The position numbers were made by a program, and so were the translations under genes. From positions 152,462-216,461 of the forward strand of contig OY970293.1 of assembly GCA_963716195.1 (NCBI GenBank): DNA of 64,000 nt. Direction: 5' to 3'. Below are positions 5,936-23,712 of this stretch, piece by piece; the stretch's first letter is position 1, and each line of letters starts with the position of its first letter. Below the pieces are notes generated by a model. That model was given only the letters and a program-made list of their open reading frames with translations. It ran no database searches and was not told the DNA's origin. This DNA comes from an uncultured Solirubrobacterales bacterium (lineage in GTDB: Bacteria > Actinomycetota > Thermoleophilia > Solirubrobacterales > JBBDJG01).

Positions 5936-5937
5936 AG

Positions 5938-6237: not shown

Positions 6238-6271
6238 CTCGATTTGGTTTGTTGTCGTGGAGTCAGTAATT

Positions 6272-6311: not shown

Positions 6312-6334
6312 TTTTAGCCGCCCCGGGGATGGGG

Positions 6335-6775
6335 CTAAACCTCGCTCCTCATGCGGGCGGCCTCTTCAGGGCTGACGTCCTCGGCGTCCTGGGCGCCGCT
6401 TGGCCACTCGTCGGTCCCGAGCAGGGCACCCTGTACGACCTTGAGCGACAGGAGGCCGCACTTGAGGCGGGTGGGGGAGAGATCTATGCCCAGTTCCTCG
6501 ACGACGAAGTGGCGGTCGAGGGCGGCGATCTCCGCCACCGTCTTGCCCTTCAGCTCGTCGGAGATGATCGACGCCGCGGCCTGCGAGATCGCGCAGCCGC
6601 GGCCGTGAAAGCGCAGGTCGGCGACCTTGCCCTCATCGAGCTTCACGTGCACGCCGAGCTCGTCCCCGCACAGCGGGTTGAGGTCGTGGAACTCGGCGTC
6701 CCGCTCGTCCAGCTCACCGAAGTTCCGCGGGTTCTTGTAGTGGTCGAGGATGTACTCGCGGTAAAGAGCGTCCAT
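6335..6775 (-). CDS. sufU: SUF-system Fe-S scaffold / sulfur acceptor SufU (NifU N-terminal family)
   Basis: 146-aa ORF: LYREYILDHYKNPRNFGEL...NPLCGDEL...GRGCAISQAAAS (three conserved Cys of SufU/IscU). Confidence 0.9.
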   Translation of the reverse strand: MDALYREYILDHYKNPRNFGELDERDAEFHDLNPLCGDELGVHVKLDEGKVADLRFHGRGCAISQAAASIISDELKGKTVAEIAALDRHFVVEELGIDLSPTRLKCGLLSLKVVQGALLGTDEWPSGAQDAEDVSPEEAARMRSEV

Positions 6776-8037: not shown

Positions 8038-8039
8038 CG

Positions 8040-8810
8040 TCAGGCGCTCACCTTCTGCTCGTGCTTCTCGCGTACCCAGTCATAGCCCTTGTCCTCGAGC
8101 TCGGAGGCGAGGCCGGCGCCACCCTCCTCGACGACGCGCCCGTCCAGCATGATGTGGACGTAATCGGGGGCGATGTACTCGAGGATGCGCCGGTAGTGGG
8201 TGATGATCAGGACGCCCAGATCCGGGCCGCGCATCGCTTCGACGGCGTTGGCGACAGTGCGCAGCGCGTCGATGTCGAGGCCGGAGTCCGTCTCGTCCAT
8301 GACGGCGATGAGTGGCTCCAGGATCGCCATCTGCAGGATCTCGCAGCGCTTCTTCTCACCGCCGGAGAAACCCTCGTTGAGGTAACGGCGGGTGAACTCG
8401 CGATCTACCTTGAGCAGGTCCATCTTCCCCTCGAGCGTCTTGCGGAAGTCCTTGAGGTTGATCGGGTCCTCGCCGCGCGCCTTGCGGTTGGCGTTGATCG
8501 CAGTGCGCAGGAAGTTGACGACCGATACGCCCGGGATCGCGGACGGGTACTGGAAGGCCATGAACAGGCCGGCGCGAGCGCGCTCGTCCGGGTCGGCTTC
8601 GGTGAAGTCCTTGCCCTGGAACAGGATCTTGCCCTCCGTCACCTCGTAGCTCGGGTGACCGAGGATCGTGTTGGCGAGCGTCGACTTGCCGGACCCGTTC
8701 GGGCCCATCAGCGCATGGACCTCGCCACGGGACACGGACAGGTCGAGACCCTTGAGGATCTCCTTGCCCTCGACCTGGACGTGCAGGTTCTGGATCTCGA
8801 GGTCGGCCAT
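8040..8810 (-). CDS. sufC: Fe-S assembly ATPase SufC
   Basis: The track ORF (8040-9086) has a 92-aa arginine-rich N-terminal artefact. The true start is the ATG at 8810 ([45 protein letters not shown]), preceded by AAAGGAG. Walker A, LSGGE-like and Walker B motifs are present. Confidence 0.95.
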
Positions 8811-8833
8811 TGGCTCCTTTCGATGCCTTTCGA

Positions 8834-9361
8834 TCACGCCGTGGCCGCAGCGGATCGGCCCGCGGCGGAACGGCTCTTCGACTTTGCCTTGGTCTTTGTC
8901 TGTGACGTCTTCTTGGCGGTCACGCCGTGCTCGGCGAAGTCGACCAGCTCCGCCAGCGTCGTCTGCTCGAGCGCCCGCGTGATGCCGCCCTGGACCCGAG
9001 TCCAGAGCAGTCGCGTCGCGCAGTGCTCGAAGCCGTCCAGCTCGTGGTTGCAGAGGACGCGCATCTCGCCAGGCTCGGCGAGGCACTGCATCGGCGCCAT
9101 CGATCCGCCCTCGAGCGCAGCGACCACCTCGGCCATCGTGATGCCGTCCGCCGCCCGCCCAAGCTCGTACCCTCCGTGCGCCCCCCGCGTCGATTGCACG
9201 AGCCCCGCTTCGCGCAGGCGCGCGATCAGGTGCTCGAGGTATGACAGCGGCAGGCCCTCCGCGGTGGCGATGTCGGCGAGCGACACCGGCCCTTCCTCGC
9301 GCCGGCGCCCCAGCGCGATCATGACTCGCACCCCGTACTCGGATCTGGTTGAGAACATCAT
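8834..9361 (-). CDS. Rrf2-family transcriptional regulator (probable Fe-S-sensing regulator of the suf cluster)
   Basis: [18 protein letters not shown]...[42 protein letters not shown] is a canonical Rrf2 wHTH. Three Cys are spaced C-x10-C-x9-C. The C-terminal tail is Lys/Ser-rich. Start ATGATG at 9361 is preceded by GGAGGT. Confidence 0.85.
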
Positions 9362-9414
9362 TGAATTCCTACCTCCACGGTCAGGATAACAGTGGCGGTA
9401 CCTGGGGACTCCTT

Positions 9415-9688
9415 GGACGGGCACCGAAGGGGGGTGATCCAGGGCGCTCGGCTGGCGACCTAAGTGGGACGAAGCGCAGACGCTGTCGTGCCGGTTTGCA
9501 CGCTTAGCCAGCTTTACGACTTCTTCGTAACACCCCGAATCGTTGCGTGATGAGTTGGGGTGGCTATAGGGACATCAACTCATCACAGAACAAGGGCCCC
9601 CTCACAAATCGGCCATTTTCCACCACTCACGTACGCAAGTCGTGAGCTTCCGCAAACGCTCGTCACGGTCGCCTTTCGATGCCCGTCC
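9415..9688 (+). repeat. Copy A of an intergenic inverted-arm element family (long form, 274 nt)
   Basis: 5' arm GGACGGGCACCGAAGGGGGGTGATCC, 3' arm CGCCTTTCGATGCCCGTCC, central hairpin GTGATGAGTTG...CAACTCATCAC at 9547-9586. Shares blocks GCGCTCGGCTG, GTGCCGGTT, CGTAACACC and TTCCGCAAA with copy D. Lies 53 nt from the rrf2 start. Confidence 0.7.
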
Positions 9689-9733
9689 TTCGGGGGCAGC
9701 GAAACGCGGCGAAATGGCAAAGCTCCGCGCCGC

Positions 9734-10390
9734 CTAGCTCCGCTCCCGCAACAACTCCCGCAGGTCATGCCCGAGCGCCTCGGGCGTGAGGAAGTCGATC
9801 GGGAATCCGACGCGCTGGCGGCCCTCGCGGTCTATCAGGACCACCCACGAGTTGTGCTCGACCCTCTCCGTTTGTGGCGAAAAGCCGTAAGCGCGCCACA
9901 CCGGCCGTAGCTCGTCGCGGGACCCGACCAGGAAGTCCATGTAGCCGCGCACCCGCTGCTCGAGCAGGAACGAGCGGGCGCTGTCAGCGCTGTCGTGTGC
10001 CGGGTCCACGCTCAGCGCAAGCGCCTTCACCTGCTCGCGCTTCCCGTCCGGCAACTCACCGAGCACGTCGCGTATCTGCTGGGCGATCAGCGGGCACGAG
10101 TCCTGGCAGGTCGTGTACATCGGCGCGAGCACCACGACCCGTCCGCGCAGCGCCCGCAGTGAGACCACGTCGCCGTCCTGGTCGGGCAGGGTGAAATCCC
10201 GTGGCGGGGTCTCGGGTCGGACCGCGCCCTTGAACTGCGACGTGGCGCCTTGAACCCCGTCCACCTCGGTCACCTGTGCGGCGGCGCCGTCGTTGCCGTC
10301 ATCGGAGCGGGCGGCGAGCGTGGCGGCGATCGCGCCGCCGAGCGCCATCACGGCGACCACGAGCAGCACCAGTTGCGCCCTTGAGAGCAC
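9734..10390 (-). CDS. SCO1/SenC-family copper chaperone (thioredoxin fold), membrane-anchored
   Basis: 218-aa ORF with an N-terminal TM helix and FTLPDQDGDVVSLRALRGRVVVLAPMYTTCQDSCPLIAQQI (CxxxC of the SCO family). Confidence 0.85.
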   Translation of the reverse strand: MLSRAQLVLLVVAVMALGGAIAATLAARSDDGNDGAAAQVTEVDGVQGATSQFKGAVRPETPPRDFTLPDQDGDVVSLRALRGRVVVLAPMYTTCQDSCPLIAQQIRDVLGELPDGKREQVKALALSVDPAHDSADSARSFLLEQRVRGYMDFLVGSRDELRPVWRAYGFSPQTERVEHNSWVVLIDREGRQRVGFPIDFLTPEALGHDLRELLRERS

Positions 10391-10423
10391 GAAAGACAGG
10401 GTATTTCAGGGTGGAGGGCGAGC

Positions 10424-11047
10424 CTACGGCTCTACGAGCCCGTGCCTGATCGCATAGCGCACGAGCTCCACGCGGTCGCGCATGCCGAGCTTCTGGAGCA
10501 CGTTCGCGCGATGCGACTCCACGGTCTTCTCGGACAGGTGCAGGATCTCCGCGATCTCCTTGTTCGTGTGCGCCTCGGCGATCAGCTTCACCACCTCCTC
10601 CTCGCGGGGCGTGAGCTCGGGCTGCTCGCCGCGCTCCAGGAAGTCGCGGATCAGAGCCTGCTGGGCGGCGGGGGTAAGAAAGGGCTCGCCCCGCCCAGCA
10701 GCGCGCACCGCCTCGACGAGGTCCTGGTCAGCCGCTCGCTTCAGGACGTAGCCCGCGGCGCCCGCGCGCAGCGCCTCGAACAGATAGCGCTCGTCCTCGT
10801 GCATGGACAGGATCAGGATCTGGACGTCGGGCGCCTGCTTGCGGATCTCGTGCGTCGCCTGCAGGCCGGTCATGCGCGGCATGGCGACGTCGAGGATCGC
10901 GAGATCCGGCTGCTCGGCGATCGCCTTCTCTATCGCCTCGACTCCGTCCTCGGCCTCGGCGACCACCTCCATGTCGGGCTGGCGGTCGATCAGCAGCTTC
11001 ACGCCCGAGCGCACGATGCCGTGATCGTCCGCGATCAGGATTCTCAT
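10424..11047 (-). CDS. Two-component response regulator, NarL/LuxR family
   Basis: 207-aa ORF: MRILIADDHGIVRSG...DLAILDVAMPRMTG receiver domain plus a C-terminal LuxR HTH (LTPREEEVVKLIAEAHTNKEIAEILHLSEKTVESHR). Confidence 0.9.
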   Translation of the reverse strand: MRILIADDHGIVRSGVKLLIDRQPDMEVVAEAEDGVEAIEKAIAEQPDLAILDVAMPRMTGLQATHEIRKQAPDVQILILSMHEDERYLFEALRAGAAGYVLKRAADQDLVEAVRAAGRGEPFLTPAAQQALIRDFLERGEQPELTPREEEVVKLIAEAHTNKEIAEILHLSEKTVESHRANVLQKLGMRDRVELVRYAIRHGLVEP

Positions 11048-12018
11048 TGCAGCGGCACCTCGAGCCGCACCGTCGTGCCCTTGCCGGGCCGGGAGTCCAC
11101 TTCGAGCCTGCCGTTCACGAGCAGCGCGCGCTCGCGCATGCCCGAGAGCCCGAGGCCCTTCGTTTCGTCTGCGAACGTGAATCCCTTGCCGTCGTCGACG
11201 ACCCGCAGGACGACGTGCGAGTTGGCCCGGCCGAGGCTGACGCCGATGTTGCTCGCCTGGCTGTGGCGAGCGGCATTGGTGAGCGCCTCCTGCGCGACTC
11301 GGTAGATCACCAGCTCGACGTCCTGCGGCAGTCCATCGAGGTCCTGGTCGAGCTCGAGCCGGGCGTGTGCCGTTCCGCGGCGGTCGTAGTGACGGACCTG
11401 GGTTGCCAGCGCCGCCTTCAGCCCATGGTCGTCGAGGGCCGCGGGGCGGAGCTGGCGGGCGAGGTCGAGGAGCTCGACCATCGCGCGGTTGGCCAGCTGC
11501 TTGGTCTGGTCGAGCTCGGCTCTCAGCTCCGGGGGGGCGTGCTGCGCCGCCGCCTCGAGGCGCAGAAGCAGCGCCGTCAGCGCCTGGTTGACCTCGTCGT
11601 GGAGGTCGCGCGCGACGCGCTTTCTCTCCTCCTCTTGCGCGCTCAGCGCAAGCTCGCCCGAACGCCGGCGTTCTTTCTCGAGCCGGTCGAGCATGCGGTT
11701 GAACGCGGCGGCCAGGCGCTGGATGTCCGTCGTTCCTCCGGTGACCGCCTCGTCCAGCTCCACGCGCCGGCCGGGTTGGGAGAGGTCGATCCGCTCCATG
11801 GTGTCGAGCACGCGCTCCAGGGGCTCGAACCGGCGCCGCAGGAGCCAGATGTTGACCACCAGGGTCAGGAGCAGGGCCAGGGCAAGGACGAGGAACTGCC
11901 GGCGCTGGCCGGCGAGCGTCAGGTCGAGGCCGGCCGCCATGCTGGCCACGAAGATCGCCGTGGCCACGAGCAGCAGGTTGAAGGCCAGTATCTGACCGAG
12001 CAGGGAAGGGCGTCTCAT
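11044..12018 (-). CDS. Sensor histidine kinase (HisKA_3 / NarX-DesK type)
   Basis: 324-aa ORF with N-terminal TM segments, H-box RVARDLHDEVNQALTAL, and an HATPase C-terminus (DDGKGF...GLGLSGMRERA). Overlaps the regulator start by 4 nt. Confidence 0.85.
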   Translation of the reverse strand: MRRPSLLGQILAFNLLLVATAIFVASMAAGLDLTLAGQRRQFLVLALALLLTLVVNIWLLRRRFEPLERVLDTMERIDLSQPGRRVELDEAVTGGTTDIQRLAAAFNRMLDRLEKERRRSGELALSAQEEERKRVARDLHDEVNQALTALLLRLEAAAQHAPPELRAELDQTKQLANRAMVELLDLARQLRPAALDDHGLKAALATQVRHYDRRGTAHARLELDQDLDGLPQDVELVIYRVAQEALTNAARHSQASNIGVSLGRANSHVVLRVVDDGKGFTFADETKGLGLSGMRERALLVNGRLEVDSRPGKGTTVRLEVPLQ

Positions 12019-12170
12019 GGCTCTGTCACGGTTCCGTCGCTAACCTGGATCAGGTGGGCACCGCAAGCCAATGGGGTCCGGACCCGATACCGGGAAAGCC
12101 CGCTCCGGACGATAATTATCGGGCACAAGGCACTGATTCAGGGCAGGGAGCCCGGTAGGAAAGCTTGGAG

Positions 12171-13031
12171 ATGTCACAGGTAACTCAAACGAATTGGAAG
12201 GCGGGAATCCGCACCACCATTCTGCTCGCGTCGCTGACGGGGCTGCTGGTGCTGCTCGGTGCGCTGATCGGCGGTCCGAGCACAGCACTCATGTTCCTGG
12301 TCATCGGGGCAGTCATAAACCTGGGTGCTTATTGGTTCTCGGACAAGATCGCTCTCAAGATGAGCCGGGCGAAGCCTCTGAACGAGGAAGACGCACCGAG
12401 GCTGCACCAGATGGTTCGCGAGCTCGCTCACTCGGCAGGATTGCCGATGCCGCGGCTGTACGTGATCCCGGCAAGCCAGCCGAACGCCTTCGCGACCGGC
12501 CGCAGCCCCAAGCACGCTGCGGTCGCGGTCACCGAGGGCATCACTCACCTCCTGAGCGAGAGTGAGTTGAGGGGCGTCATAGCGCACGAGTTGGCTCACA
12601 TCCGCAACCGCGACACGCTGATCACCTCCGTCGCCGCGACGATCGGCGGGGCGATCACGTGGATCGCCTACCTGCTCCTGTTCGTGGGCGGCGACGACGA
12701 CAGCCCGCTCGGGCTGATCGGCAGCCTCGCGCTGGTGATACTCGCGCCGATCTCGGCGACGATCATCCAGCTCGCCATCTCACGTCAGCGCGAGTACTCG
12801 GCCGACGCGACCGGTGCGCGCATCTCGGGTACGCCGAACGCCCTCGCGGACGCTCTCGAGCGTCTCGAGGCCGGCGCCAAGGAGATGCCGATGCAGGTCA
12901 ACGCGGCATCCGAGCCGCTCTACATCGTCAAGCCGTTCAGCGGCGGGGGCATCGCGGGTCTGTTCTCGACCCACCCCCCGATCGACGAACGCGTGCGGCG
13001 CCTGCGCGAGCTGGCAGGGAGCGTGAGCTAG
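12171..13031 (+). CDS. htpX: Zinc metalloprotease HtpX (M48)
   Basis: HELAHIRNRD zinc motif, four TM segments, C-terminal FSTHPPIDERVRRL. The track start is TTG 12165. ATG 12171 has AGGAAAG 9 nt upstream. Confidence 0.9.
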   Translation: MSQVTQTNWKAGIRTTILLASLTGLLVLLGALIGGPSTALMFLVIGAVINLGAYWFSDKIALKMSRAKPLNEEDAPRLHQMVRELAHSAGLPMPRLYVIPASQPNAFATGRSPKHAAVAVTEGITHLLSESELRGVIAHELAHIRNRDTLITSVAATIGGAITWIAYLLLFVGGDDDSPLGLIGSLALVILAPISATIIQLAISRQREYSADATGARISGTPNALADALERLEAGAKEMPMQVNAASEPLYIVKPFSGGGIAGLFSTHPPIDERVRRLRELAGSVS

Positions 13032-14026: not shown

Positions 14027-15244
14027 GTGACGACCGAGGGAACACGGCACCGCTCCGGGCGGGAGCTGATCAAGGAGATTCGCTCTCGGGTCGAGGAAAT
14101 CGACCCGACCGCGGTCCAGCAGGAGCTGGACGTGCGGGAGAGCAACGGCAGCGCCGACAAGGCGGTGGCGGTGATAGACGTGCGCGAGCAGCACGAGTTC
14201 GAGGCCGGCCACATTCCCGGCGCCGTGCACGTGCCTCGGGGACACCTCGAGTCGAGGATCGAGAACTTCGTCCCCCAGCGCGACCGGCGCATCGTCCTGT
14301 ACTGCCAGACGGGGCAGCGCTCGGCGCTGGCCGCCGACACGCTCAAGGAGCAGCTCGGCTACGAGGACGTCGCCTCCATGAACGGCGGCTTCACGCTCTG
14401 GCGCGACCGTGGTCTTCCCTTCGTGCAGCCGCGCGCCCTCACCGACGTCCAGAAGCAGCGCTATTCGCGTCATCTCTTGATCCCGGAGGTCGGGATCGAG
14501 GGCCAGCAGAAGCTGCTCGACGCGAAGGTCCTGATGATCGGCGCCGGCGGCCTCGGCTCGCCGGCCGCGCTTTACCTCGCGGCGGCGGGCGTGGGCACCC
14601 TCGGGATCGTCGACGACGACGTCGTCGACCTCACGAACCTTCAGCGGCAGGTGATCCACAACTCGGAGCGCATCGGCGAGCCCAAGGTCGATTCGGCGCG
14701 CGAGACCATCGCTGCGCTCAACCCCGACGTCGAGGTGGTCCCCTATCGCACGCGCCTCGACGCGGACAACGTGCTCGACCTGATCCGCGACTACGACGTG
14801 ATCGTCGACGGCGCTGACAACTTCCCCACGCGCTACCTGCTGAACGATGCAGCGGTGCGCGAGCGCAAGCCGGTCGTGCACGCGTCCATCCTCGGGTTCG
14901 ACGGGCAGCTGACGGTTTTCAAGCCTTACGAGGGCCCCTGCTACCGCTGCCTCTACCCGCAACCGCCGCCCGCCGATCTCGCGCCATCGTGCGGCGCCAA
15001 CGGCGTGCTCGGCGTGCTGCCCGGCATCATGGGGCTGCTGCAGGCGAACGAGACGATCAAGCTCATCATCGGTCAGGGTCAGCCGCTGATCGGCAAGCTC
15101 CTTCTCTTTGAGGCGCTTTCGACGCAGTTCACCGAGCTGAAGGTTCGCCGCGACGCGGAGGGGTGCCCGACCTGTGGTGACGGCATCGACCTCGAGAGCA
15201 CCGAGTTCGAGGACTACGAAGCCCTCTGCGCCGCCGCAGGCTAG
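14027..15244 (+). CDS. MoeZ/MoeB-like E1 adenylyltransferase-sulfurtransferase with N-terminal rhodanese domain
   Basis: 405-aa ORF. N-terminal rhodanese (VIDVREQHEFEAGHIPGAVHVP...LYCQTGQRSALAA). Then ThiF/MoeB (KVLMIGAGGLGSPAALYLAAAGVGTLGIVDDDVVDLTNLQRQ) with CYRC...CPTC zinc motifs. GTG start is preceded by AGAGGAA. Confidence 0.85.
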   Translation: MTTEGTRHRSGRELIKEIRSRVEEIDPTAVQQELDVRESNGSADKAVAVIDVREQHEFEAGHIPGAVHVPRGHLESRIENFVPQRDRRIVLYCQTGQRSALAADTLKEQLGYEDVASMNGGFTLWRDRGLPFVQPRALTDVQKQRYSRHLLIPEVGIEGQQKLLDAKVLMIGAGGLGSPAALYLAAAGVGTLGIVDDDVVDLTNLQRQVIHNSERIGEPKVDSARETIAALNPDVEVVPYRTRLDADNVLDLIRDYDVIVDGADNFPTRYLLNDAAVRERKPVVHASILGFDGQLTVFKPYEGPCYRCLYPQPPPADLAPSCGANGVLGVLPGIMGLLQANETIKLIIGQGQPLIGKLLLFEALSTQFTELKVRRDAEGCPTCGDGIDLESTEFEDYEALCAAAG

Positions 15245-15273
15245 GTTGGCCGATTCCGGCTAGGCTTGCGCGC

Positions 15274-15546
15274 ATGGCCGTCGTCAAGATTCCACCGGTA
15301 CTGCGTCCTTCCACCAGCGGCATGAGCCAGCTCGAGGTGGAGGGCGGGACCGTCGGCGAGGTCCTGCGCGGGCTTGCCAATCAGTACCCGGCCACCCAGG
15401 ATCAGCTGCTCTCGGTCGAAGGCGAGCTGAACCGGTACGTCAACGTCTACGTCAACGACGAGGACGTGCGGGTCCAGAACGGTCTCCAGACCAGCGTTGC
15501 GCCGGGTGACACGATCGTGATCCTGCCCGCCATGGCCGGGGGATAG
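15274..15546 (+). CDS. cysO: MoaD/ThiS-family sulfur-carrier protein (CysO-like), C-terminal Gly-Gly
   Basis: 90-aa ORF ending ...TIVILPAMAGG followed by stop. Located between the E1-like gene and the cysteine synthase gene. Confidence 0.8.
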   Translation: MAVVKIPPVLRPSTSGMSQLEVEGGTVGEVLRGLANQYPATQDQLLSVEGELNRYVNVYVNDEDVRVQNGLQTSVAPGDTIVILPAMAGG

Positions 15547-15551
15547 AGCAA

Positions 15552-15595
15552 TTCCGGGTTTTGCTTAGGCGCAAAACCGGGAGCTCCGAGGGCTC
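15552..15595. repeat. 44-nt hairpin repeat, copy 1 (immediately after the cysO stop)
   Basis: TTCCGGGTTTTGCTTAGGCGCAAAACCGGGAGCTCCGAGGGCTC. Nearly identical to 56536-56580. Confidence 0.65.
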
Positions 15596-15613
15596 AACAC
15601 ACCCGATTACACT

Positions 15614-16588
15614 TTGCGCACCATGCTTTCAGCCCGGCCAGTGAGGGAGCCGCGTCCATGTTGTCCCGACCTCGTCGGCGTGATCGGCAACACGCCCATG
15701 GTCGAGCTCAAGCGCATGTCTCCGAAGGAAGGCGTGCGTCTCTTCGCCAAGCTCGAGTTCTACAACCCCACGGGCTCGGTCAAGGACCGAGTTGCCCGCG
15801 CGATGATCGAGCGCGCCGAGCAGGAGGGCGCCATCGCTCCCGGTCAGACGATCCTCGAGCCGACCTCCGGCAACACGGGCATCTCGCTGGGGCTCGTCTG
15901 TCGCCTCAAGGGCTATCCGCTCAAGGTCGTGATGCCGGAGAACGTCACGGAAGAACGGTCGAAGCTCTTGCGCATGTACGGGGCGGAGATCGTCTACTCC
16001 GAGGGCTCTAAGGGATCGAACGGGGCCGTCGAGCTCGCGCTCGAGATGGCGCAGGGCGACCCGAGCTACTACATGCCCTACCAGTACGGCAATCCCGCCA
16101 ACCCCGACGCGCACTACCACGGCACCGCGGAGGAGATCCTCGAGGAGCTGGACGATGTGACGGCTTTCGTGGCCGGCCTCGGCACGGGTGGGACGTTGAT
16201 GGGCAACGGGCGCCGGCTGAAGGAGCACGATTCGAATACGACGATCGTCGCCGCGGAGCCGCTTCAGGGAGAGCTGGTGCAGGGACTGCGCTCACTCGAC
16301 GACGGCTTCATCCCGCCGATCATCGACATCTCCCTCCTGGACCGGAAGATTCTCGTCTCCAATCGCGACGCCATCATCTGGACGCAGAGAATGTTCTTCG
16401 AGGAGGGGATCTTTGCGGGAGTCTCCTCCGGAGCGATCGCGTCGGTGGCGGTACGGGTGGCGAACGAGCTCGACGAGGGAAACGTCGTGTTCATCATCGC
16501 CGACGACGGCTCGAAGTACCTGTCGGCGGACATCTGGACGAAGTCCGTCGACGAGTTGGAGCAGGTCGACTCCACCGTTTGGTGGTAA
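15614..16588 (+). CDS. cysM: PLP-dependent cysteine synthase (CysM-like, thiocarboxylate-dependent)
   Basis: 324-aa ORF: IGNTPMVELKRM...KLEFYNPTGSVKDRVA (PLP Lys)...EPTSGNTGISLG. The start is uncertain (TTG 15614 or ATG 15623). Confidence 0.85.
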   Translation: MRTMLSARPVREPRPCCPDLVGVIGNTPMVELKRMSPKEGVRLFAKLEFYNPTGSVKDRVARAMIERAEQEGAIAPGQTILEPTSGNTGISLGLVCRLKGYPLKVVMPENVTEERSKLLRMYGAEIVYSEGSKGSNGAVELALEMAQGDPSYYMPYQYGNPANPDAHYHGTAEEILEELDDVTAFVAGLGTGGTLMGNGRRLKEHDSNTTIVAAEPLQGELVQGLRSLDDGFIPPIIDISLLDRKILVSNRDAIIWTQRMFFEEGIFAGVSSGAIASVAVRVANELDEGNVVFIIADDGSKYLSADIWTKSVDELEQVDSTVWW

Positions 16589-16651
16589 CGGCCGCGGTGC
16601 CGAACGTTTTCCGGCCGGAGGGGGCGACGCCCCCGCCGTCGGCGTAGCCGC

Positions 16652-17047
16652 ATGGAGATCGAGCGCAGCATGGTCGACGACCTCTTCGCGCACGCGCGCG
16701 AGGACCTGCCCAACGAGTGCTGCGGCCTGATCGCCGCGCAGGACGGGCGTGCGGTGAAGGTCTACCGCGCGCACAATGCCGAGGCCAGTCCCGTCCGCTA
16801 CGGGCTCGATCCGCGCGAGCAGTACAAGATGATGATGGACATGGAGGAGCGCGGGTGGAAGCTCGGCGCCATCTACCACTCGCACACGCGCAGCCCCGCC
16901 TACCCGTCCCAGACCGACGTCAACCTCGCCTTCTATCCGGAGGCGCTCTACCTGATCGTGTCGCTCCAGGATCCCGAGCAGCCAGACCTGCGCGCCTTCA
17001 AGATCGTGGACGGGTCGATCGAAGAGGTTGCCCTCACGGTGTCCTGA
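16652..17047 (+). CDS. mec: JAMM/MPN+ metalloprotease (Mec-like, CysO-cysteine hydrolase)
   Basis: 131-aa ORF: NECCGLIAA...IYHSHTRSPAYPSQTD (the E...HxH...S..D JAMM motif). Confidence 0.85.
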   Translation: MEIERSMVDDLFAHAREDLPNECCGLIAAQDGRAVKVYRAHNAEASPVRYGLDPREQYKMMMDMEERGWKLGAIYHSHTRSPAYPSQTDVNLAFYPEALYLIVSLQDPEQPDLRAFKIVDGSIEEVALTVS

Positions 17048-17084
17048 TCTCCGGCCTCGGCGGCAAGGGCCTACAGTTAACGAC

Positions 17085-17588
17085 GTGGATTCGGCCTCGG
17101 GACCTCTCGCCTGCCCGAAGTGCGCGACGCGCTACTCGCTCGACGAGCGCTTCTGCACGAACTGCGGGATGCCGCTCGTCTACTCCGGGCGCGGCGACGA
17201 GAACCCGGTCACCGAGCAGCACGAGCGCGCGCGCAAGATCAAGGCGCAGTACACGCATGGCGACCTGCGCAGAGTGGTGACGGCACGCCAGCAGGCGGAA
17301 GCCGAGTTCATCCAGCTACTGCTGCTCGAGGAAGGGATTCCGAGCACACTGCGGCGCGCGACCTGGGACGTGCCGGAGTTTCTGGCCGCCGGGCCACGCG
17401 ACGTGCTGGTGCCGGAGTCCGGACTCGAGGTGGCCAGGGACGTTCTGCGCCAGAGCGACATCACGCCCGAGCTCGAGGCCGCTCAACGCACCGGTGCCGG
17501 CGGCGGGCCCTCGCCGGTGATGCTGCTGGCCGGGATCGTGGTCGCGCTCGCGATCATCGCGCTGCTGCTCCTCGTCGGTGGCCGCTAG
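17085..17588 (+). CDS. Zinc-ribbon protein with putative signal-transducing (DUF2007-like) domain and C-terminal TM anchor
   Basis: CPKCATRYSLDERFCTNCG zinc ribbon. The central AEAEFIQLLLLEEGIPSTL...VLVPESGLEVARDVL resembles DUF2007. C-terminal helix LLAGIVVALAIIALLLLV. The start is uncertain (GTG 17085; the track ORF starts at 17028 inside mec). Confidence 0.5.
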   Translation: MDSASGPLACPKCATRYSLDERFCTNCGMPLVYSGRGDENPVTEQHERARKIKAQYTHGDLRRVVTARQQAEAEFIQLLLLEEGIPSTLRRATWDVPEFLAAGPRDVLVPESGLEVARDVLRQSDITPELEAAQRTGAGGGPSPVMLLAGIVVALAIIALLLLVGGR

Positions 17589-17598
17589 CAAGCAGACG

Positions 17599-18384
17599 TC
17601 AAGGATTCGTCCACTCGAACGGATCGAACGTGACCGCGGGGTCTGCCCGCGCCAGCTCGTCCAGGTGCGAGCGCCAGCGCAGCCGGACGTCCGCCAGCGT
17701 CGCGCCGAAGGCGCGTTCGATCATCTGCTCGCCTGACATCGGCTCGCTCGTCAGCGCCAGCTCCACGCATGCATCGATGCCGCGCTCGCGCTCGAGCAGG
17801 TCGTACACGGAGCCGCCCATCAGCGCTGCATCGCGTAGCGTCGGGGGCAGGCGCGGCGGCGAGCCGCGCAGCCGCCGTGCAATTGCCGCGCGCAGATGGG
17901 GAAGCTGGCCCGAGAAGAACTGAGCCGCGCCTTCGGCGAGCCAGGCCATCCGCAGGAAAGCCTGCATCGACGAGACGCGAAACGGCGGCGGCAGCAGCGC
18001 GTTGTTCTCGCCGACGACCAGCAGGGTGAAGCTGCGCTCGGGCGTCAGCATCAGCGCCTTCAACGAGTCCTGGCCGCCGGCCGCGTGGCGCAGCACCTGG
18101 GGGGCCAGCAGGTGGAGCTCGTCACTGGTGTACCAGCCCGCCATGTAGCGCCGGCCGGCCGCAGAGGCGAAGCGGCGGGCGAGCGACACGTGGGGCTGGG
18201 CGAGCGCGAGCTGCAGCGGTGAATCGTGCAGGACCACTGTGATGTTGGCCGGCACCCGCGGGAAGAGTCGCTCCAGCTCGGTGCGATACGCCTCGAGCGA
18301 TTCCAGCACCGCGAGTGCTTCGTCCGCATGAGAGGACTCATGACGGGCGGTGAAGGTCAGCGACGGTGTCTCGGTCCAGGCCAC
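17599..18384 (-). CDS. Hypothetical protein (third gene of the DUF1802/DUF1152 cassette)
   Basis: The track ORF starts at 18480 and overlaps the upstream gene. An in-frame GTG at 18384 lies 4 nt after the upstream stop (TGA 18391-18389). 261 aa with no motif I can assign. Confidence 0.5.
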   Translation of the reverse strand: MAWTETPSLTFTARHESSHADEALAVLESLEAYRTELERLFPRVPANITVVLHDSPLQLALAQPHVSLARRFASAAGRRYMAGWYTSDELHLLAPQVLRHAAGGQDSLKALMLTPERSFTLLVVGENNALLPPPFRVSSMQAFLRMAWLAEGAAQFFSGQLPHLRAAIARRLRGSPPRLPPTLRDAALMGGSVYDLLERERGIDACVELALTSEPMSGEQMIERAFGATLADVRLRWRSHLDELARADPAVTFDPFEWTNP

Positions 18385-18388
18385 GGTC

Positions 18389-19282
18389 TCACGCTTCCGC
18401 AAACGAACGCTCGTAGTCGAGCTCGGTGCTGATGCCGAGCTCGTGCATGGTGTCATTTGCGGCCTCGATCGTGTCGGCATCCATCACGGCGCGGGCGAGT
18501 GCCGCGACGCCAGCAACCGCTATTGCCGGCTGGAACAGGAACGTCAGGGCTCCGAGTGGAGACAGATAGACGGTCCGTCTCCCGCGCCTGATCGTCGCCT
18601 GCCCGATCTCTCCGCGCGCACAGCGAACGGCCTGGGCGCTCGCCTCGGTGGGCACGAGCTCGATGACCCGCTCGAGCTCGTCGACGACGGCATCGGTCAT
18701 GCTCCAGCTCCCCGCCAGCCCGCCGGCCGCGGCGAGCCCAGCCAGCCTGTCGAGCAGCTCCCCGGCTGTCAGCTCCCCGTCGCAGCAGGGGCCGAAGACG
18801 GCGCCGAGCACATGCATGCCGCTGGATTCGAGGCGCGCCGCGGCGGCGAGCATGATCGCGTCGCACAGCGGACTCGCGAGGCCCGGCTCGGTGCCGTTGC
18901 CGAGCACGTCTCCGCCCACGTCCACGCAGACCACGAGGTCGGCGCGAAGCTTCGCTGCCGCGTCAGCCAGCGACTCTGCGATCGCGGCCGGGCTGCGGTG
19001 CAGGTCGAGGAGCAGCGTGTCCTCGCCGAGGTGGGCAGCCATGCCCGCTTCGGCAAACGGCGCTCCATCGACAGTGCGGGTCTGCGGTCCTGCGAGCAAC
19101 ACGGCGTCTGCGAGCGGGCGCGCGCCCACGATCTCGCTCTCGGGGCGCGGGCCGGGGTGGGGGTCGATCGGGAGACGCTCCCACGCGATGCCACCGACCA
19201 CGAACGCAAGCCCCTGCTCCTCCAGCATGCGCGCGGTCGCAAGGGCGCCGACGACGTCACCGCCGCCTCCGATGCCGAGCAC
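18389..19282 (-). CDS. DUF1152-like protein (uncharacterised)
   Basis: 297-aa ORF. N-terminal LGIGGGGDVVGA glycine loop and CVDVGGDVLG resemble my recollection of Pfam DUF1152. No experimentally known function. Confidence 0.65.
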   Translation of the reverse strand: MLGIGGGGDVVGALATARMLEEQGLAFVVGGIAWERLPIDPHPGPRPESEIVGARPLADAVLLAGPQTRTVDGAPFAEAGMAAHLGEDTLLLDLHRSPAAIAESLADAAAKLRADLVVCVDVGGDVLGNGTEPGLASPLCDAIMLAAAARLESSGMHVLGAVFGPCCDGELTAGELLDRLAGLAAAGGLAGSWSMTDAVVDELERVIELVPTEASAQAVRCARGEIGQATIRRGRRTVYLSPLGALTFLFQPAIAVAGVAALARAVMDADTIEAANDTMHELGISTELDYERSFAEA

Positions 19283-19331
19283 GATCGCGCGGCTCGCCTG
19301 GCCGAGGATTCGCTCTAGGCCGGCCGTGCCG

Positions 19332-19973
19332 CTAGACCGCCGACCCGGCGGTGAGCATGCTCGCCTCGCGCGCGATCGACTCGATCGCGGCGGCGGCGCG
19401 TTCGAATTCCTCGTCCGCGATCACCGGCGTGCCCTCGAACGGCAGCTCGCGATCGATCTCGAGCCAGGACAAGCAACCGGCATAGTCCGGTCGCACGCGC
19501 ACGGTCACCGGGCGCGGGATCCTGTAGACGCGCAGGACGAGGATGTGCAGCGGGTGCCTGGGCTTCCAGCGCAGGCGCTTGACCGCGTAGTCCGAGGTCC
19601 AGATGTGAAACGGCGTCAGCCCGTCCACGATCCGGGGGTCCGTGACCTCGTAGTGCTCGTGGACCTCTGCCCAGGCGCGGATGCGTACTCGTTCGGGCTG
19701 CTCGATGCCGCCATCCTGGATCAGCGCCTTGGGAGGCGGCTCGCCGTCCGCCCACACTCCCTCTTCGAGCGCGCGTCGCAGCTCGGGATGGTGCGACTGG
19801 CGCACGAGGTTGTTGCGCTGGTGGTCGAACGTGGGGTAGAGGAAGAACCGGTCGTGGTCCAGCTCGAAATGCTTGTGCTCCTCGCGGATTCCGCCCTTGC
19901 GCAGCGTTACGAGCTGCTCGCCCTCTGCGAGGGCGCGGACGGTGACCGCCCATTCTTTGAAAGCAACTGGCAT
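19332..19973 (-). CDS. DUF1802-like protein (uncharacterised)
   Basis: 213-aa ORF. MPVAFKEWAVTVRALAEGEQLVTLRKGGIRE...FFLYPTFDHQ matches my recollection of the DUF1802 N-terminus. Confidence 0.65.
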   Translation of the reverse strand: MPVAFKEWAVTVRALAEGEQLVTLRKGGIREEHKHFELDHDRFFLYPTFDHQRNNLVRQSHHPELRRALEEGVWADGEPPPKALIQDGGIEQPERVRIRAWAEVHEHYEVTDPRIVDGLTPFHIWTSDYAVKRLRWKPRHPLHILVLRVYRIPRPVTVRVRPDYAGCLSWLEIDRELPFEGTPVIADEEFERAAAAIESIAREASMLTAGSAV

Positions 19974-20140
19974 CTCAGCAGTGATCGATTCCGGCCACGC
20001 GGGTCGAACGGCTGCCTCCCGGCAGCTCTCCCGCTTTTGGCCCTAGCAGGAAAAATCCCGCAAACAAGCGGGAAATCCATGCTGCGTGGCCAGCATTGTA
20101 GGGCTTAGAACGAGAAATACCAAATTGATTGGCGAGTCAG

Positions 20141-21694
20141 TCAGCGCTTGTTGGAGGTCCCGAAACCCCCTCCGCCGGGGGTCTCCAGCCGCAGCCTGTC
20201 ACCCTCGTTCAACCGTCCGGAGGCCTTGGCAGGCAGCTCCTGCTCGCCTCCGTCGGCCGGCAGCGCGAGGTTCGAGCCGCGGGCGCCCGGCCCGCCCCCG
20301 GCTGCACCCGGGGGAGCATGGCGGCGACGCTCCGTGAGCAGTGAGAACTGCATGCCGGAGAGGGCTTCCAGCTCGCGCACCACGCCGTCGCCGCCACGAT
20401 GCGCACCCGCCCCGCCCGAGCCCCTGCGCACGGCGTATTCGGTCACGCGCAGCGGAAACTCCTGCTCGAGCGCCTCGACGGGCGTGTTCAGGGTGTTGCT
20501 CATCGCCACGTGCACGGCCGAAGGACCATCGCGGTCCGGGCACGCCCCCTGCCCGCCGGCGATCGTCTCGTAGTAGGTGAAGTCCTCGTTGCCCAGCGTG
20601 AGGTTGTTCATCGTCCCCTGCCCTAGCGCCGGCAGCTCGACGGCCGAGCCGAGCGCCAGCATCACGACGTCCGCGATCCGGCTCGACGTCTCCACGTTGC
20701 CGCCTGCGACGGCTGCGGGCGGGAGCGCGTTGACGAGCGCGCCCGCCGGCGCGCTGACGCGCACGGGTCGGTACGCCCCCGCCGACGGCGGGATGTCGGG
20801 GTCGGTCGCGACCCTGAGCACGAAGAAGACGGCTGACTTTGTCACCGACAGGGGACAGTTGAGGTTGCCCGCACTCTGAGCATCGGTGCCGGAGAAGTCG
20901 ACGTCGATCTCGTCGCCACGCACCGTCACCGACACGGTGATGCGAAGGTCGTGCGGCTGGCCGCGACCGTCGTCTTCGAGCACGTCGCGCGCCCGGTACG
21001 TGCCATCTGGGAAGCGCTCGATGCACGCACGCGTGCGGCGCTCGGCGTAGTCGAGCACCTCGGTCATTCCGCTCAACAGCGTCTCGACCCCGTGACGTGA
21101 GGTGATCTCTGACAGACGGGTTGCCGCGAGCCGGTTGGCGGCTAGCTGGGCGCGCAGATCGGCCGCGCGCTGAGCGGGCGCCCGCATCTGTGCGGTCAGG
21201 CGGTCGAGCAGGCTGCGGTCGAGCTCGCCGGCCCGGACGAGCAGCGTCGGCGGGATCACGACTCCCTCCTCGTCCAGTGTCGTGGAATCGGCCGGCATGC
21301 TGCCCGGCACCCTGCCGCCGACGTCGGCGTGGTGCGCACGGCTTGCCGCGTAGCCGGCGTGGCGCCCTTCGAGGAAGAGCGGCGACACGAGCGTGATGTC
21401 GGGTAGATGGGTCCCGCCGGCGTAAGGGTCGTTCAGGATCCAGACATCGCCATCAGCCGGCCGTTCGGCCTTGACGGCTGCCACCGCCTCCGGCATCGAG
21501 CCGAGGTGGACGGGGATGTGCTCGGCCTGCATCACCATCTCGCCGGCGGCGTCGAACACCGCGGTCGACGCGTCCCTGCGCTCCTTGATGTTGGCCGAGT
21601 GGGCGGCCCGCACAAGCGCCGCGCCCATCTCCTCGCATGTTGCGCGCAGGGCGCCGGTCAGAACCTGCAGCGTGACGGCGTCGAGCCCAGTCAT
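20141..21694 (-). CDS. hyuB: Hydantoinase B / oxoprolinase family, B subunit
   Basis: The true start is the ATG at 21694 (MTGLDAVTLQVLTGALRATCEEMGAALVRAAHSANIKERRDAS), overlapping the hyuA stop as ATGA. The 140-aa Arg-rich extension in the track ORF is an artefact. Confidence 0.9.
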   Translation of the reverse strand: MTGLDAVTLQVLTGALRATCEEMGAALVRAAHSANIKERRDASTAVFDAAGEMVMQAEHIPVHLGSMPEAVAAVKAERPADGDVWILNDPYAGGTHLPDITLVSPLFLEGRHAGYAASRAHHADVGGRVPGSMPADSTTLDEEGVVIPPTLLVRAGELDRSLLDRLTAQMRAPAQRAADLRAQLAANRLAATRLSEITSRHGVETLLSGMTEVLDYAERRTRACIERFPDGTYRARDVLEDDGRGQPHDLRITVSVTVRGDEIDVDFSGTDAQSAGNLNCPLSVTKSAVFFVLRVATDPDIPPSAGAYRPVRVSAPAGALVNALPPAAVAGGNVETSSRIADVVMLALGSAVELPALGQGTMNNLTLGNEDFTYYETIAGGQGACPDRDGPSAVHVAMSNTLNTPVEALEQEFPLRVTEYAVRRGSGGAGAHRGGDGVVRELEALSGMQFSLLTERRRHAPPGAAGGGPGARGSNLALPADGGEQELPAKASGRLNEGDRLRLETPGGGGFGTSNKR

Positions 21695-23712
21695 CCGCCC
21701 TCCTCGCGCTCGAGCACGAGCGTCCCTTCCGGGCGCACCGATCCACGCCAGCGCGGCGGCACCACGACCGTGGCCTCCGGCAGCTCGCACACGGCAGGCC
21801 CCACCACCTCCGTCCCCGGCTCGAGCTCGCCACGGACGACCGCGGTCTCGACGCGTTCGCCGCCGAAGAGGGCGGGCCTGCTGCCGCGCTTGACGCCGGT
21901 GCCGGTGGCCGCCGCCAGCTGCGGGTGTGCGCCGGGCGCCACCGCCGCGACGCGCACGGTGACGAGCTCCAGCGCTGCTTCGGGATCGGCGTACCCGTAG
22001 CGGTGTTCGTGCTCGCTCTCGAACCGTGCGCGAAGGTCGGCCACGTCGGGCTCCGGCGGTCCTTCCACCGCGAGCTCGAACGCCTGGCCGCGATAGCGCA
22101 GCTCGTACGTGCACTCGACCCGCGCCTGGGGCAGCTCGGCGAGCGCTGCCTGCGCCAGCTCAGCCGTCTCGGCCGCGATCCGCTCGGAAGTCAGGTCGCG
22201 ACCGGACAGCAGGACTGTGCGCGCTACGTCGCGGCGGCGGTCCGAAACGACGAGGCCGAGAGCCGACAACACGCCGGCCGCACGGGGACACAGGACGCGG
22301 CTAACCCCGAGCTCGTCTGCGATCCGGGCAGCGTGCATCGGGCCCGCGCCGCCGAAGGCGACCAGCGCGTGTGCCCGCGGATCCACTCCGCGCTCGACGG
22401 TGACCACGCGCAGGGCCCGCAGCATCTCCGCGTCGGCGACCCGGACGATGCCCGCCGCCACTTCGTCCTCGGACAGGCCGGCACGCTGCGCCAGCGCTCC
22501 GACCGCCCGCCTTGCGGCGTCCGGGTCGAGCGTTATCCCCCCGGCGAGCGGCGCTCCTGCCTCCAGGTAGCCGAGCAGGAGGTTGGCGTCCGTGACGGTG
22601 GCCTCGGTGCCGCCGAGGCCGTAGCAGGCGGGGCCGGGATCGGCCCCGGCCGACTGCGGCCCCACGCGCAAGGCTCCGCCGGCATCGACCCAGCCGATGC
22701 TGCCGCCCCCGGCGCCAACCGTGTGGACATCCACCATCGGCAGTTGGAGCACCCGTCCGCCGATCGGGCGCTCGGCCGTGAGCCGAACGCGGCCGTCCTC
22801 CACGACCGCCACGTCGCATGACGTCCCGCCCATGTCGAAGGAGAGCAGGTCGCGGCGGCCGGCTAGCGAGCCGAGATGCGCCGCCCCGACCGCTCCGCCC
22901 GCAGGGCCTGACAGCACGGTCCAGGCTGCATGTTGCGCCGCTGCTGCGGCGGCGACCAGGCCGCCGCTCGACTGCATGATCTCCGGGGCGGGCAGACCGG
23001 CCGCCGCCGCCCCGTCCGCGAGCCGCTCGAGGTACCGCGACATGAGTGGCGACAGGTACGCGTCGATCACCGTGGTCGAGGTGCGCTCGTACTCACGGAA
23101 GACACGGAGCACCTCGTTCGAGGCGCTGACATGGACCGATGGCAGCCTGCTCGCGATCACCTCGGAGACAGCCTGCTCGTGGCGCGGGTCCATGTAGGAG
23201 TGCAGAAGGCAGACGGCGACTGCCTCGACGTCCGCGTCTGCGACCGCATTCACGACGCTGGTCACGGACGACTCGTCGAGGGCGCGCTCGACTCCGCGCG
23301 GCGAGATGCGCTCGCTCACGCCGAAGCGCAGCTCGGGGGGAACGAGCGGTGCTGGCCGGCCAAGGCAGAGGCGATACAGGTCGGGGCGGTTCTGACGCGC
23401 GATCTCGATCACGTCCTGGAAGCCGTCCGTGGTGACGAGGGCGGTCCTCGCGCCACGCTCTGTGAGCAGCGCGTTCGTTCCAACCGTCATCCCGTGCGCG
23501 AAACGCTCGACCTGCGCTGGCTCCATGCCCGCCCTCTCGAGCACTGCGGCGACTGCGCTCAGTACTCCCCGCGACTGGTCGTCCGGCGTCGTCGGGACCT
23601 TCGCCGTGAGGAGGCGGTCCCCGGCGACGAGCGCCGCATCGGTGAACGTGCCGCCCACGTCCACGCCGAGCAGGGCGCGGGGGAGTGGCTTGCAGCTGGT
23701 GTTGTCCTCCAT
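21691..23712 (-). CDS. hyuA: Hydantoinase A / oxoprolinase family, A subunit (ATP-hydrolysing)
   Basis: 673-aa ORF: LLGVDVGGTFTDAALV..., FDMGGTSCDVAVV (ASKHA-fold ATPase motifs). Confidence 0.9.
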   Translation of the reverse strand: MEDNTSCKPLPRALLGVDVGGTFTDAALVAGDRLLTAKVPTTPDDQSRGVLSAVAAVLERAGMEPAQVERFAHGMTVGTNALLTERGARTALVTTDGFQDVIEIARQNRPDLYRLCLGRPAPLVPPELRFGVSERISPRGVERALDESSVTSVVNAVADADVEAVAVCLLHSYMDPRHEQAVSEVIASRLPSVHVSASNEVLRVFREYERTSTTVIDAYLSPLMSRYLERLADGAAAAGLPAPEIMQSSGGLVAAAAAAQHAAWTVLSGPAGGAVGAAHLGSLAGRRDLLSFDMGGTSCDVAVVEDGRVRLTAERPIGGRVLQLPMVDVHTVGAGGGSIGWVDAGGALRVGPQSAGADPGPACYGLGGTEATVTDANLLLGYLEAGAPLAGGITLDPDAARRAVGALAQRAGLSEDEVAAGIVRVADAEMLRALRVVTVERGVDPRAHALVAFGGAGPMHAARIADELGVSRVLCPRAAGVLSALGLVVSDRRRDVARTVLLSGRDLTSERIAAETAELAQAALAELPQARVECTYELRYRGQAFELAVEGPPEPDVADLRARFESEHEHRYGYADPEAALELVTVRVAAVAPGAHPQLAAATGTGVKRGSRPALFGGERVETAVVRGELEPGTEVVGPAVCELPEATVVVPPRWRGSVRPEGTLVLEREEGG

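Follow-up and report, generated by a model that had tools for sequence, protein, structure and literature searches.

What do three tightly packed genes of uncharacterised proteins do, and do they form a system of their own? This question is raised by a stretch of 64,000 nucleotides (the window below) on contig OY970293.1 of an uncultured Solirubrobacterales bacterium, in which an earlier reading of the DNA (the original prediction) had singled out a minus-strand cassette of a DUF1802-like gene, a DUF1152-like gene and a third gene of no recognised family. Comparison with related loci showed that the trio is a lineage-specific mosaic, a loose operon of one class of soil bacteria, and no unit conserved across phyla. 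It also showed that DUF1152 is repeatedly adjacent or fused to two signature enzymes of the dihydroxyacetone phosphate (DHAP) shunt, and this gives DUF1152 its first concrete, testable pathway assignment.

The three open reading frames (ORF1, ORF2 and ORF3; Table 1) and the gaps between them, 49 nt for ORF1/ORF2 and 4 nt for ORF2/ORF3, agreed exactly with the original prediction when compared with the ORF list and the sequence, and the three products are NCBI-annotated proteins, residue for residue. Both family calls were upheld by Pfam. ORF1 matched DUF1802 (PF08819) with E = 1.5e-56 and 191.4 bits against a cutoff of 25, residues 4-194 covering profile positions 1-172 of 174, and ORF2 matched DUF1152 (PF06626) with E = 1.6e-85 and 287.4 bits against a cutoff of 27, residues 2-293 covering positions 3-293 of 295. 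ORF3, for which no family had been recognised, gave no match in Pfam, NCBIfam or the PDB sequences, even with a 58-member alignment. An alternative ORF3 start at 18480 (293 aa) has no counterpart on record at NCBI, and the homologues in the family alignment all start at M-A-W-x-E-T, which supports the 261-aa start. Among the matches listed, homologues at E<=1e-3 numbered >5467, 791 and 2285 for the three ORFs, and such hundreds to thousands of homologues mark them as conserved genes and rule out chance ORFs. No PDB relative of any of the three was found by sequence or profile. The earlier statement that neither DUF has an assigned function also held: the literature search gave no publication on DUF1152 or DUF1802, and nothing informative on either was found.

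The extent of conservation was assessed in a GTDB scan of one genome per species, seeded on DUF1152, with locus classes assigned by tblastn. All 80 loci recovered were from Thermoleophilia, chiefly metagenome-assembled genomes (MAGs) of Solirubrobacterales and Thermoleophilaceae. DUF1802 was followed by DUF1152 as in the window in 48 of the 80 (type A), DUF1152 stood alone in 22 (type B), and it lay beside MtnA in 10 (type C). When type A loci from the GTDB, metagenome and look-up sets were pooled (n = 64), 55 had enough downstream sequence to be judged, and ORF3 was found at most 400 nt downstream in 43 of these, 0.7-6.5 kb away in 10 and absent in 2. A gene or fragment of the Penicil_amidase family lay between in nine of the ten loci with a distant ORF3; a same-strand gene of ~900-980 aa, belonging to the N-terminal nucleophile (Ntn) hydrolases, separated DUF1152 from ORF3 in L011, L028, L030, L053, L060, L062, L067 and L079, and L013 had only a fragment there. 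Inserts within the cassette fell solely at gene boundaries and on the same strand. A second locus set, seeded on DUF1802 instead of DUF1152, contained eight loci in which DUF1802 was followed directly by ORF3 without DUF1152 (L167-L170, L176, L178-L180) and one, L177, in which it was followed directly by a penicillin amidase, again without DUF1152. Outside Thermoleophilia, where plasmid records only were sampled, DUF1152 occurred without DUF1802 on haloarchaeal and Streptomyces plasmids, and DUF1802 without DUF1152 in Paenibacillus. ORF1 and ORF2 are thus placed as clear members of Pfam families whose linkage to each other is limited to Thermoleophilia. The original prediction had envisaged a conserved linked trio and proposed a neighbourhood analysis across phyla as a check. 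Run here, that analysis showed the genes linked beyond this genome within Thermoleophilia, but it failed across phyla, with no trio locus outside the class, and inside the class the parts were separable.

The pathway assignment of DUF1152 came from its paralogues. Certain representatives of DUF1152 have an Aldolase_II domain at their N-terminus or include the C-terminal end of an IF-2B/MtnA protein. When the DUF1152 domain of such a protein was used to seed a metagenome scan, 80 loci were recovered, and in 57 of them DUF1152 lay beside an MtnA, class II aldolase or GNAT gene. Ten GTDB loci of Thermoleophilaceae had the same arrangement as the MtnA-linked metagenome loci, giving 67 loci overall with a DUF1152 paralogue beside one of these genes. 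The fullest type C order was [TetR]-MtnA-(Aldolase_II)-DUF1152-GNAT, followed by transhydrogenase genes. MtnA was directly followed by DUF1152 in 27 loci, sometimes with overlapping stop and start codons, and Aldolase_II and DUF1152 formed a single ORF in 9 loci and were adjacent in 18. The type C MtnA passed the TIGR00512 (salvage_mtnA) equivalog cutoff, scoring 333-349 bits against 279, and the aldolase scored as the FucA/ribulose-1-phosphate-aldolase type, unlike the dehydratase MtnB. Type C paralogues had a mean identity of 54% to window-type DUF1152, close to the spread of 58% within type A. The neighbours of stand-alone DUF1152 loci were analysed after removal of shadow antisense ORFs by a filter on GC content at third minus second codon positions (GC3 minus GC2) and by tblastn, and ten loci first classed as stand-alone turned out to be MtnA-linked on the filtered analysis.

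Known DHAP-shunt clusters have the order mtnK-mtnA-ald2 or mtnP-mtnA-ald2 (PMC10986504), and in the DHAP-shunt and methionine-salvage clusters as a whole (mtnP or mtnN plus mtnK, with mtnA and ald2) the substrates are 5'-methylthioadenosine (MTA) as well as 5'-deoxyadenosine (PMC10986504). The DUF1152 paralogues resemble these clusters: their neighbours are a genuine MtnA and a class II aldolase of FucA-like type, and in some cases they are fused to the aldolase. Type C loci differ from them in having no recognisable MtnP, MtnN or MtnK, and carry DUF1152 and a GNAT gene instead. Across all 170 loci not one gene like DeoD, MtnN or Udp turned up, a point in favour of the pathway link whose scope is the loci, not whole genomes. 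The window cassette differs further, as it has neither MtnA nor aldolase and pairs DUF1152 with DUF1802 and a pseudo-zincin, ORF3.

Other DUF1152 genes were found beside nucleotide enzymes. On a plasmid of Halalkalicoccus sp. FCH27 (L081) a NUDIX gene lies immediately upstream of DUF1152 on the same strand, and on a Halostella plasmid the same position is taken by an HD_3/YfbR-like 5'-nucleotidase gene, also on the same strand. The L081 region at 5787-12220 is a compact island of NAD/ADP-ribose recycling, comprising NUDIX, DUF1152, NAD kinase, a hydrolase of metallo-beta-lactamase (MBL) fold, nicotinate phosphoribosyltransferase, an isochorismatase-type (nicotinamidase-like) hydrolase and a macro-domain protein. 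The match in Halocatena was a 125-aa DUF1152 fragment only and was uninformative. Among stand-alone DUF1152 loci of Solirubrobacterales (L021, L025, L051, L059, L064, L071, L078 and others), a zinc-type alcohol dehydrogenase/quinone oxidoreductase flanked the gene in 12 of 21, and some stand-alone loci had an acyl-carrier-protein (ACP)-thioesterase-like gene nearby. The simplest single activity that fits the MtnA, NUDIX and HD-nucleotidase contexts would be one whose substrate is a nucleoside or pentose phosphate; most likely it would make the pentose-1-phosphate that is isomerised by MtnA.

The DUF1152 protein itself is a probable enzyme without a significant structural neighbour in the PDB. 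ORF2 is rich in invariant acidic residues and has two Gly-rich loops, GIGGGGD at 3-9 and VDVGGD at 120-125. Conservation was scored over 90 diverse members with 29-59% identity, and the residues conserved family-wide were D9, E35, R36, D40, D121, D125, E132, S137, D141, D168, E170, E213, R232, R236 and E287. The conserved motifs checked in ORF2 were GGGGD, WER, DxGGD, SPLxD, DGEL and TEAS together with R232 and R236; among the >=85%-conserved columns it departs from the majority residue at two positions, with G128 for A and C166 for G. The family is small, with 794 clusters at 50% identity in 1.84 billion representatives, and diverse members gave no recurrent remote Pfam or PDB link, the family being isolated by sequence. 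Structure prediction of ORF2 and ORF3, which the original prediction had suggested, had different outcomes for the two. ORF3 led to a gluzincin fold, described below. The AlphaFold2 (AF2) model of ORF2 was confident, with a predicted local distance difference test score (pLDDT) of 95.1 and a predicted template modelling score (pTM) of 0.93, and a Foldseek search of it against the PDB returned zero matches at E<=1e-3. About half of the top 50, all non-significant, were nucleoside phosphorylases or nucleosidases, and the NP-I superfamily was over-represented among them. In BFVD, confident matches were obtained only to DUF1152 proteins of Klosneuvirinae giant viruses; these entries (A0A3G5AD54, A0A1V0SJT1 and A0A3G4ZPD9, of Hyperionvirus, Klosneuvirus and Terrestrivirus) gave structural E values down to 8e-12.

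From gene context and conservation together we tentatively favour, at slightly less than even confidence, a salvage or catabolic operon specific to Thermoleophilia in which DUF1152 would act on a nucleoside or a 5-deoxypentose phosphate. DUF1152 would be a metal-dependent enzyme of nucleoside or 5-deoxypentose-phosphate salvage, in which the GIGGGGD and VDVGGD loops may bind the phosphate and ribose parts of the substrate and the invariant Asp and Glu residues may bind Mg2+ and substrate. Its most likely place would be the entry step that yields a ribose-1-phosphate derivative for MtnA, in which an adenosine-type 5'-deoxynucleoside would be cleaved in the manner of a phosphorylase or nucleosidase; in the DHAP shunt this part falls to MtnP, or to MtnN plus MtnK. 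The window copy is teamed with DUF1802 and the HEXXH-less, gluzincin-fold ORF3. With its own promoter and a structured leader, the cassette encodes three cytoplasmic proteins that in this reading are functionally associated but separable; being separable, they make no obligate three-part machine. HyuA, HyuB, DUF1802 and ORF3 form the stable backbone in this lineage and DUF1152 an optional module between DUF1802 and ORF3, and in other species a gene of the penicillin-amidase family or a dehydrogenase fills a comparable position. Gene structure, conservation of the promoter, family memberships, predicted folds and the statistics of neighbourhoods and fusions are direct results; that the genes are co-transcribed, which way the DUF1152 step runs and all biochemical activities are what we infer. 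A more far-reaching version is unlikely in our judgement: DUF1152 would be a non-homologous stand-in, of unseen fold, for MtnP or MtnN plus MtnK, feeding MtnA and Ald2 in Thermoleophilaceae and acting on NAD- or nucleotide-derived nucleosides in haloarchaea, and in the window it would have been recruited with DUF1802 and the HEXXH-less zincin to serve a new salvage route, whose substrate would be another nucleoside, possibly a modified one, or a lactam-type metabolite.

Several observations weigh against the favoured salvage operon. The window itself has neither MtnA nor class II aldolase by tblastn over its 64 kb, so that the pathway link rests on DUF1152 paralogues and not on the window copy. 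Type C loci lack DUF1802 and ORF3, and in a neighbour-joining tree of DUF1802 the nine DUF1152-less loci fall at scattered places between those of type A, which means that DUF1152 was lost or gained repeatedly; given these gaps and the composition of type C, the three proteins need not share a pathway. The position of DUF1802 beside a divergent mtnA in Paenibacillus, which speaks for the reading, is a single case. The PDB matches of the ORF2 model were weak (E > 0.1, TM < 0.2), and homology of DUF1152 to nucleoside phosphorylases was rejected: hhalign of the 90-sequence DUF1152 profile against E. coli Udp, DeoD and MtnN gave a probability of 0.7%, and 8 unrelated E. coli controls scored no worse. 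Likewise, PNP_UDP_1 was not matched in Pfam scans of 77 DUF1152 members at E<=5. The likeness to the NP-I superfamily (PNP_UDP_1: DeoD, Udp, MtnN, MtnP) lies in the role predicted from gene context and in the resemblance of DUF1152 GIGGGGDVVGALA to Udp GIGGPSTSIAVEEL, but the DUF1152 motif stands at the extreme N-terminus and not after the first four strands, and the hhalign score stays <1%. If the proposed activity is right, DUF1152 would at most be an analogue of NP-I and probably no member of that family.

The lack of hhalign support for nucleoside phosphorylase homology would suit a different step of the same MtnA-linked pathway, with DUF1152 as an ATP-dependent kinase of 5-deoxyribose, methylthioribose or ribose-1-phosphate, or acting downstream on the ketose-1-phosphate or aldehyde product. 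The aldolase fusion fits a neighbouring or downstream step equally well, Gly-rich loops and many acidic residues suit Mg-ATP chemistry, and the alcohol dehydrogenase recurs beside the stand-alone paralogues. We consider this very unlikely, however: the DUF1152 family has no Walker A motif and no kinase-family match, and the haloarchaeal partners, NUDIX and an HD 5'-nucleotidase, yield nucleosides or nucleotides and favour a step at the glycosidic bond.

For the cassette as a transcription unit, the original prediction of a probable unit of its own was confirmed by a conserved sigma-70-type promoter upstream of DUF1802, with 1 promoter-like site seen in 17300-20400 vs 0.2 expected by chance. 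TTGG(A/T)A-N17-TACAAT is also visible in relatives L001, L002, L023, L085 and L086, and 52 of 62 related loci had TTGNNN-N16-18-TANNNT at most 230 nt upstream of DUF1802, vs a shuffle mean of 2.7. The leader behind the promoter had a minimum free energy (MFE) of -52.2 kcal/mol (z = -2.68; 2/200 shuffles equally stable), and no obvious Shine-Dalgarno sequence precedes the ORF1 ATG. The hairpin that had been thought to separate the cassette from the hydantoinase genes is present on the minus strand, as TCCCGC-TTGTTT-GCGGGA followed by TTTTT (U5), but it is no such barrier: as the promoter lies upstream of it, the hairpin is part of the 5' leader and no HyuB terminator. The closest relatives have a counterpart hairpin just past the -10 box with changed stem bases (CCGGGC/GCCGGG in L086). 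No convincing terminator was found inside the cassette. On the basis of the short gaps, the one conserved promoter and the absence of a convincing internal terminator, the three genes probably share one promoter and would be co-transcribed as a unit of their own.

The leaders upstream of DUF1802 in L001-L180 were 75-145 nt long with strong GC-rich stems that vary by sublineage, most of them without a Shine-Dalgarno sequence ahead of the ATG, and might be lineage-specific regulatory RNAs. A single leader RNA motif shared across the class was rejected, as the leaders of distant loci failed to align as one, and the riboswitch idea found no Rfam match for the window leader.

A single syntenic block of ~20 kb holds all type A loci; it comprises Hist_deacetyl, NadB-like, HyuA, HyuB, the cassette and the convergent Zn-ribbon, JAB, CysM, ThiS and ThiF-rhodanese genes. 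Adjacency within the class is consequently weak evidence of shared function, a further point against the favoured operon, and the syntenic block opens the way to a reading in which the genes have no common function and are unrelated neighbours held together by slow rearrangement in Thermoleophilia, under one promoter by positional accident. Such a reading would also account for each pairwise link being broken in some locus and for the families living apart outside the class. It is quite unlikely, we believe, as the DUF1152/ORF3 spacing is very tight (4 nt or overlapping), the DUF1802-ORF3 order persists in L176 despite altered flanking synteny, promoter and leader are conserved, and insertions respect gene boundaries and strand.

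The AF2 model of ORF3 (pLDDT 91.6) pointed to a peptidase-like fold. Its best Foldseek matches in the PDB were the collagenase T peptidase domain (E = 2.4e-3), M1 aminopeptidases, ERAP1 and LTA4H, with modest scores (probability 0.9-1.0, TM 0.4-0.56, E from 2.4e-3 up) over ~270-290 aligned columns. Assigned by the order of secondary structure, with no residue-level superposition, helix 17-40 corresponds to the backing helix, helix 114-127 to the active-site helix and helix 147-157 to the 'glutamate' helix. The helix in active-site position reads LTPERSFTLLVVGEN, with HEXXH absent; helix 114-127 is TPERSFTLLVVGEN, with the family consensus LTPxRxYT. The following helix keeps WLAEGAAQ (148-155), in which E151 is conserved as E or D. 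The M1 family has a Glu-bearing 'WLNEG' helix. ORF3 is thus like the gluzincins (MA clan: M1, LTA4H, M9) in its predicted fold and in its WLAEGAAQ helix, which resembles M1 'WLNEG', but differs in an active-site helix without HEXXH. A HESSH at residues 15-19 is kept in 11 of 58 relatives and marks the start of a different helix. No peptidase hidden Markov model (HMM) matched ORF3. On the strength of the model, ORF3 is best described as a protein of predicted zincin fold whose canonical metal site has been lost; its probable role is to bind a substrate or to hydrolyse an amide by a non-canonical route.

The genes upstream of the cassette were HyuA and HyuB, whose best NCBIfam matches were caprolactamase alpha and beta, below cutoff. 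The HyuB start at 21700 overlaps the HyuA stop by 10 nt; a 657-aa HyuB ORF (20141-22114, minus) was rejected, having a spurious 5' end that starts far inside HyuA. HyuAB lay upstream of DUF1802 in the majority of type A loci; wherever a DUF1802-seeded locus had upstream flank it did so without exception, even in L176, in which the Hyu order is inverted. In L079, L140-L142 and L162, 5-7 kb are inserted between Hyu and DUF1802. The likeness of the window to HyuA/HyuB operons is that in most related loci the cassette follows immediately downstream of a pair of this kind; the difference is that the cassette has its own promoter and that its proteins are not known to belong to any characterised HyuAB system.

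This setting makes an amide- or lactam-catabolic island centred on HyuAB a serious rival to the salvage operon, since HyuAB upstream, the amidase and dehydrogenase inserts and the peptidase fold of ORF3 all agree with it. The cassette would be its accessory: DUF1802 and ORF3, with the amidase or dehydrogenase in some species, would process the substrate or product of an ATP-dependent lactamase, and DUF1152 would be a passenger or side-branch. The position of HyuAB holds even in L176 with its inverted Hyu pair and changed downstream synteny, the recurrent inserts are Penicil_amidase hydrolases or NAD_binding_2 dehydrogenases, and DUF1152 is dispensable in nine loci. Nevertheless we rate this reading as somewhat unlikely, as a conserved promoter stands between HyuB and DUF1802, the 5-7 kb inserts part them in five loci, the support comes all from one syntenic lineage, Paenibacillus DUF1802 has no Hyu neighbour, and ORF3 has no catalytic HEXXH motif.

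DUF1802 was the most conserved member of the cassette, with 93 invariant columns across 44 sequences. An ASCH/PUA-like N-terminus was considered and rejected: hhalign against E. coli YqfB gave a probability of 0.06%, and ASCH, EVE or PUA was matched neither in Pfam scans of 44 DUF1802 members (E<=5) nor in a PDB profile search. Members of the DUF1802 and ORF3 alignments gave no recurrent remote Pfam or PDB link. In Paenibacillus cellulosilyticus (L083, 5573-11142), DUF1802 lies between a divergent mtnA and a sufC-D-S-U operon, with a DUF1805 gene beyond mtnA, and no Rfam match was found for an intergenic riboswitch near this mtnA.

A compact cassette of proteins without known function also invites the idea of an anti-phage defence or toxin-antitoxin-like system. 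On plasmid p3 of Streptomyces angustmyceticus (L082, 6911-10482), the genes after a distant DUF1152 (~32% identity) encode an ATP-binding protein and a DUF4435 protein, a pair that resembles known two-gene defence modules. For the trio, defence is scarcely credible: PADLOC gave zero matches at E<=0.01 for all three proteins, the chromosomal site is stable and syntenic and no variable island, the 120 best DUF1802 homologues are 74-90% identical across many species, and the neighbours of the paralogues are metabolic genes.

Two apparent DUF1802-DUF1152 fusions, P0266 and P0313, were first read as Rosetta-stone proteins and then dropped as evidence; in P0266 the DUF1152 gene is split over two gene calls, which points to a frameshift or assembly artefact. 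P0457, a DUF1152-ORF3 'fusion', was a frameshift-ridden read-through. Over-long or 'fusion' proteins of long-read MAGs (L084, P0266, P0457, P0512 and P0503) were artefacts of frameshifts, recognisable by split gene calls and by Arg-rich stretches out of frame, and would mislead surveys of domain architecture.

Downstream, the cassette meets genes of the opposite strand. A Zn-ribbon gene, whose small product has a zinc ribbon at the N-terminus and a hydrophobic segment at the C-terminus, ends 10 nt from the ORF3 stop (17588 to 17599); its relatives gave weak Zn_Ribbon_1/DUF2007 matches, and in related loci it always lies between ORF3 and the JAB gene. A complete sulfur-carrier set for cysteine biosynthesis converges on the cassette from the same side.

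Table 1 Features of the window around the three-gene cassette
Feature	Position	Strand	Remarks
ORF1, DUF1802	19973-19332	minus	213 aa, ATG start; Pfam PF08819
ORF2, DUF1152	19282-18389	minus	297 aa, GTG start; Pfam PF06626
ORF3, uncurated family	18384-17599	minus	261 aa, GTG start; gluzincin-like model
HyuA, ATP-dependent hydantoinase/oxoprolinase/caprolactamase-like	23712-21691	minus	Pfam Hydantoinase_A in related loci
HyuB, hydantoinase/oxoprolinase/caprolactamase-like	21700-20141	minus	519 aa; Pfam Hydantoinase_B in related loci
Sigma-70-type promoter, TTGGTA-N17-TACAAT	20123-20095	minus	sole promoter-like site in 17300-20400
Structured 5' leader	19974-20088	minus	~115 nt; holds hairpin 20073-20056
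Zn-ribbon gene	17028-17588	plus	
Sulfur-carrier cysteine-biosynthesis set	14027-17047	plus	ThiF-rhodanese (MoeZ-like), ThiS/CysO-like, CysM-like PALP, JAB/Mec-type protease

For the trio itself, these results describe a lineage-specific mosaic operon and no new widespread system. The value of the finding lies in a testable pathway link for DUF1152, in a confident DUF1152 model without a solved relative, and in the recognition of ORF3 as a HEXXH-less gluzincin by its predicted fold. If the proposed role is true, DUF1152 would add an enzyme fold without a solved relative, and it would supply a missing piece of the way in which Thermoleophilia, abundant Actinomycetota of soil, and possibly haloarchaea, dispose of MTA and 5'-deoxyadenosine, the toxic by-products of S-adenosylmethionine (SAM).

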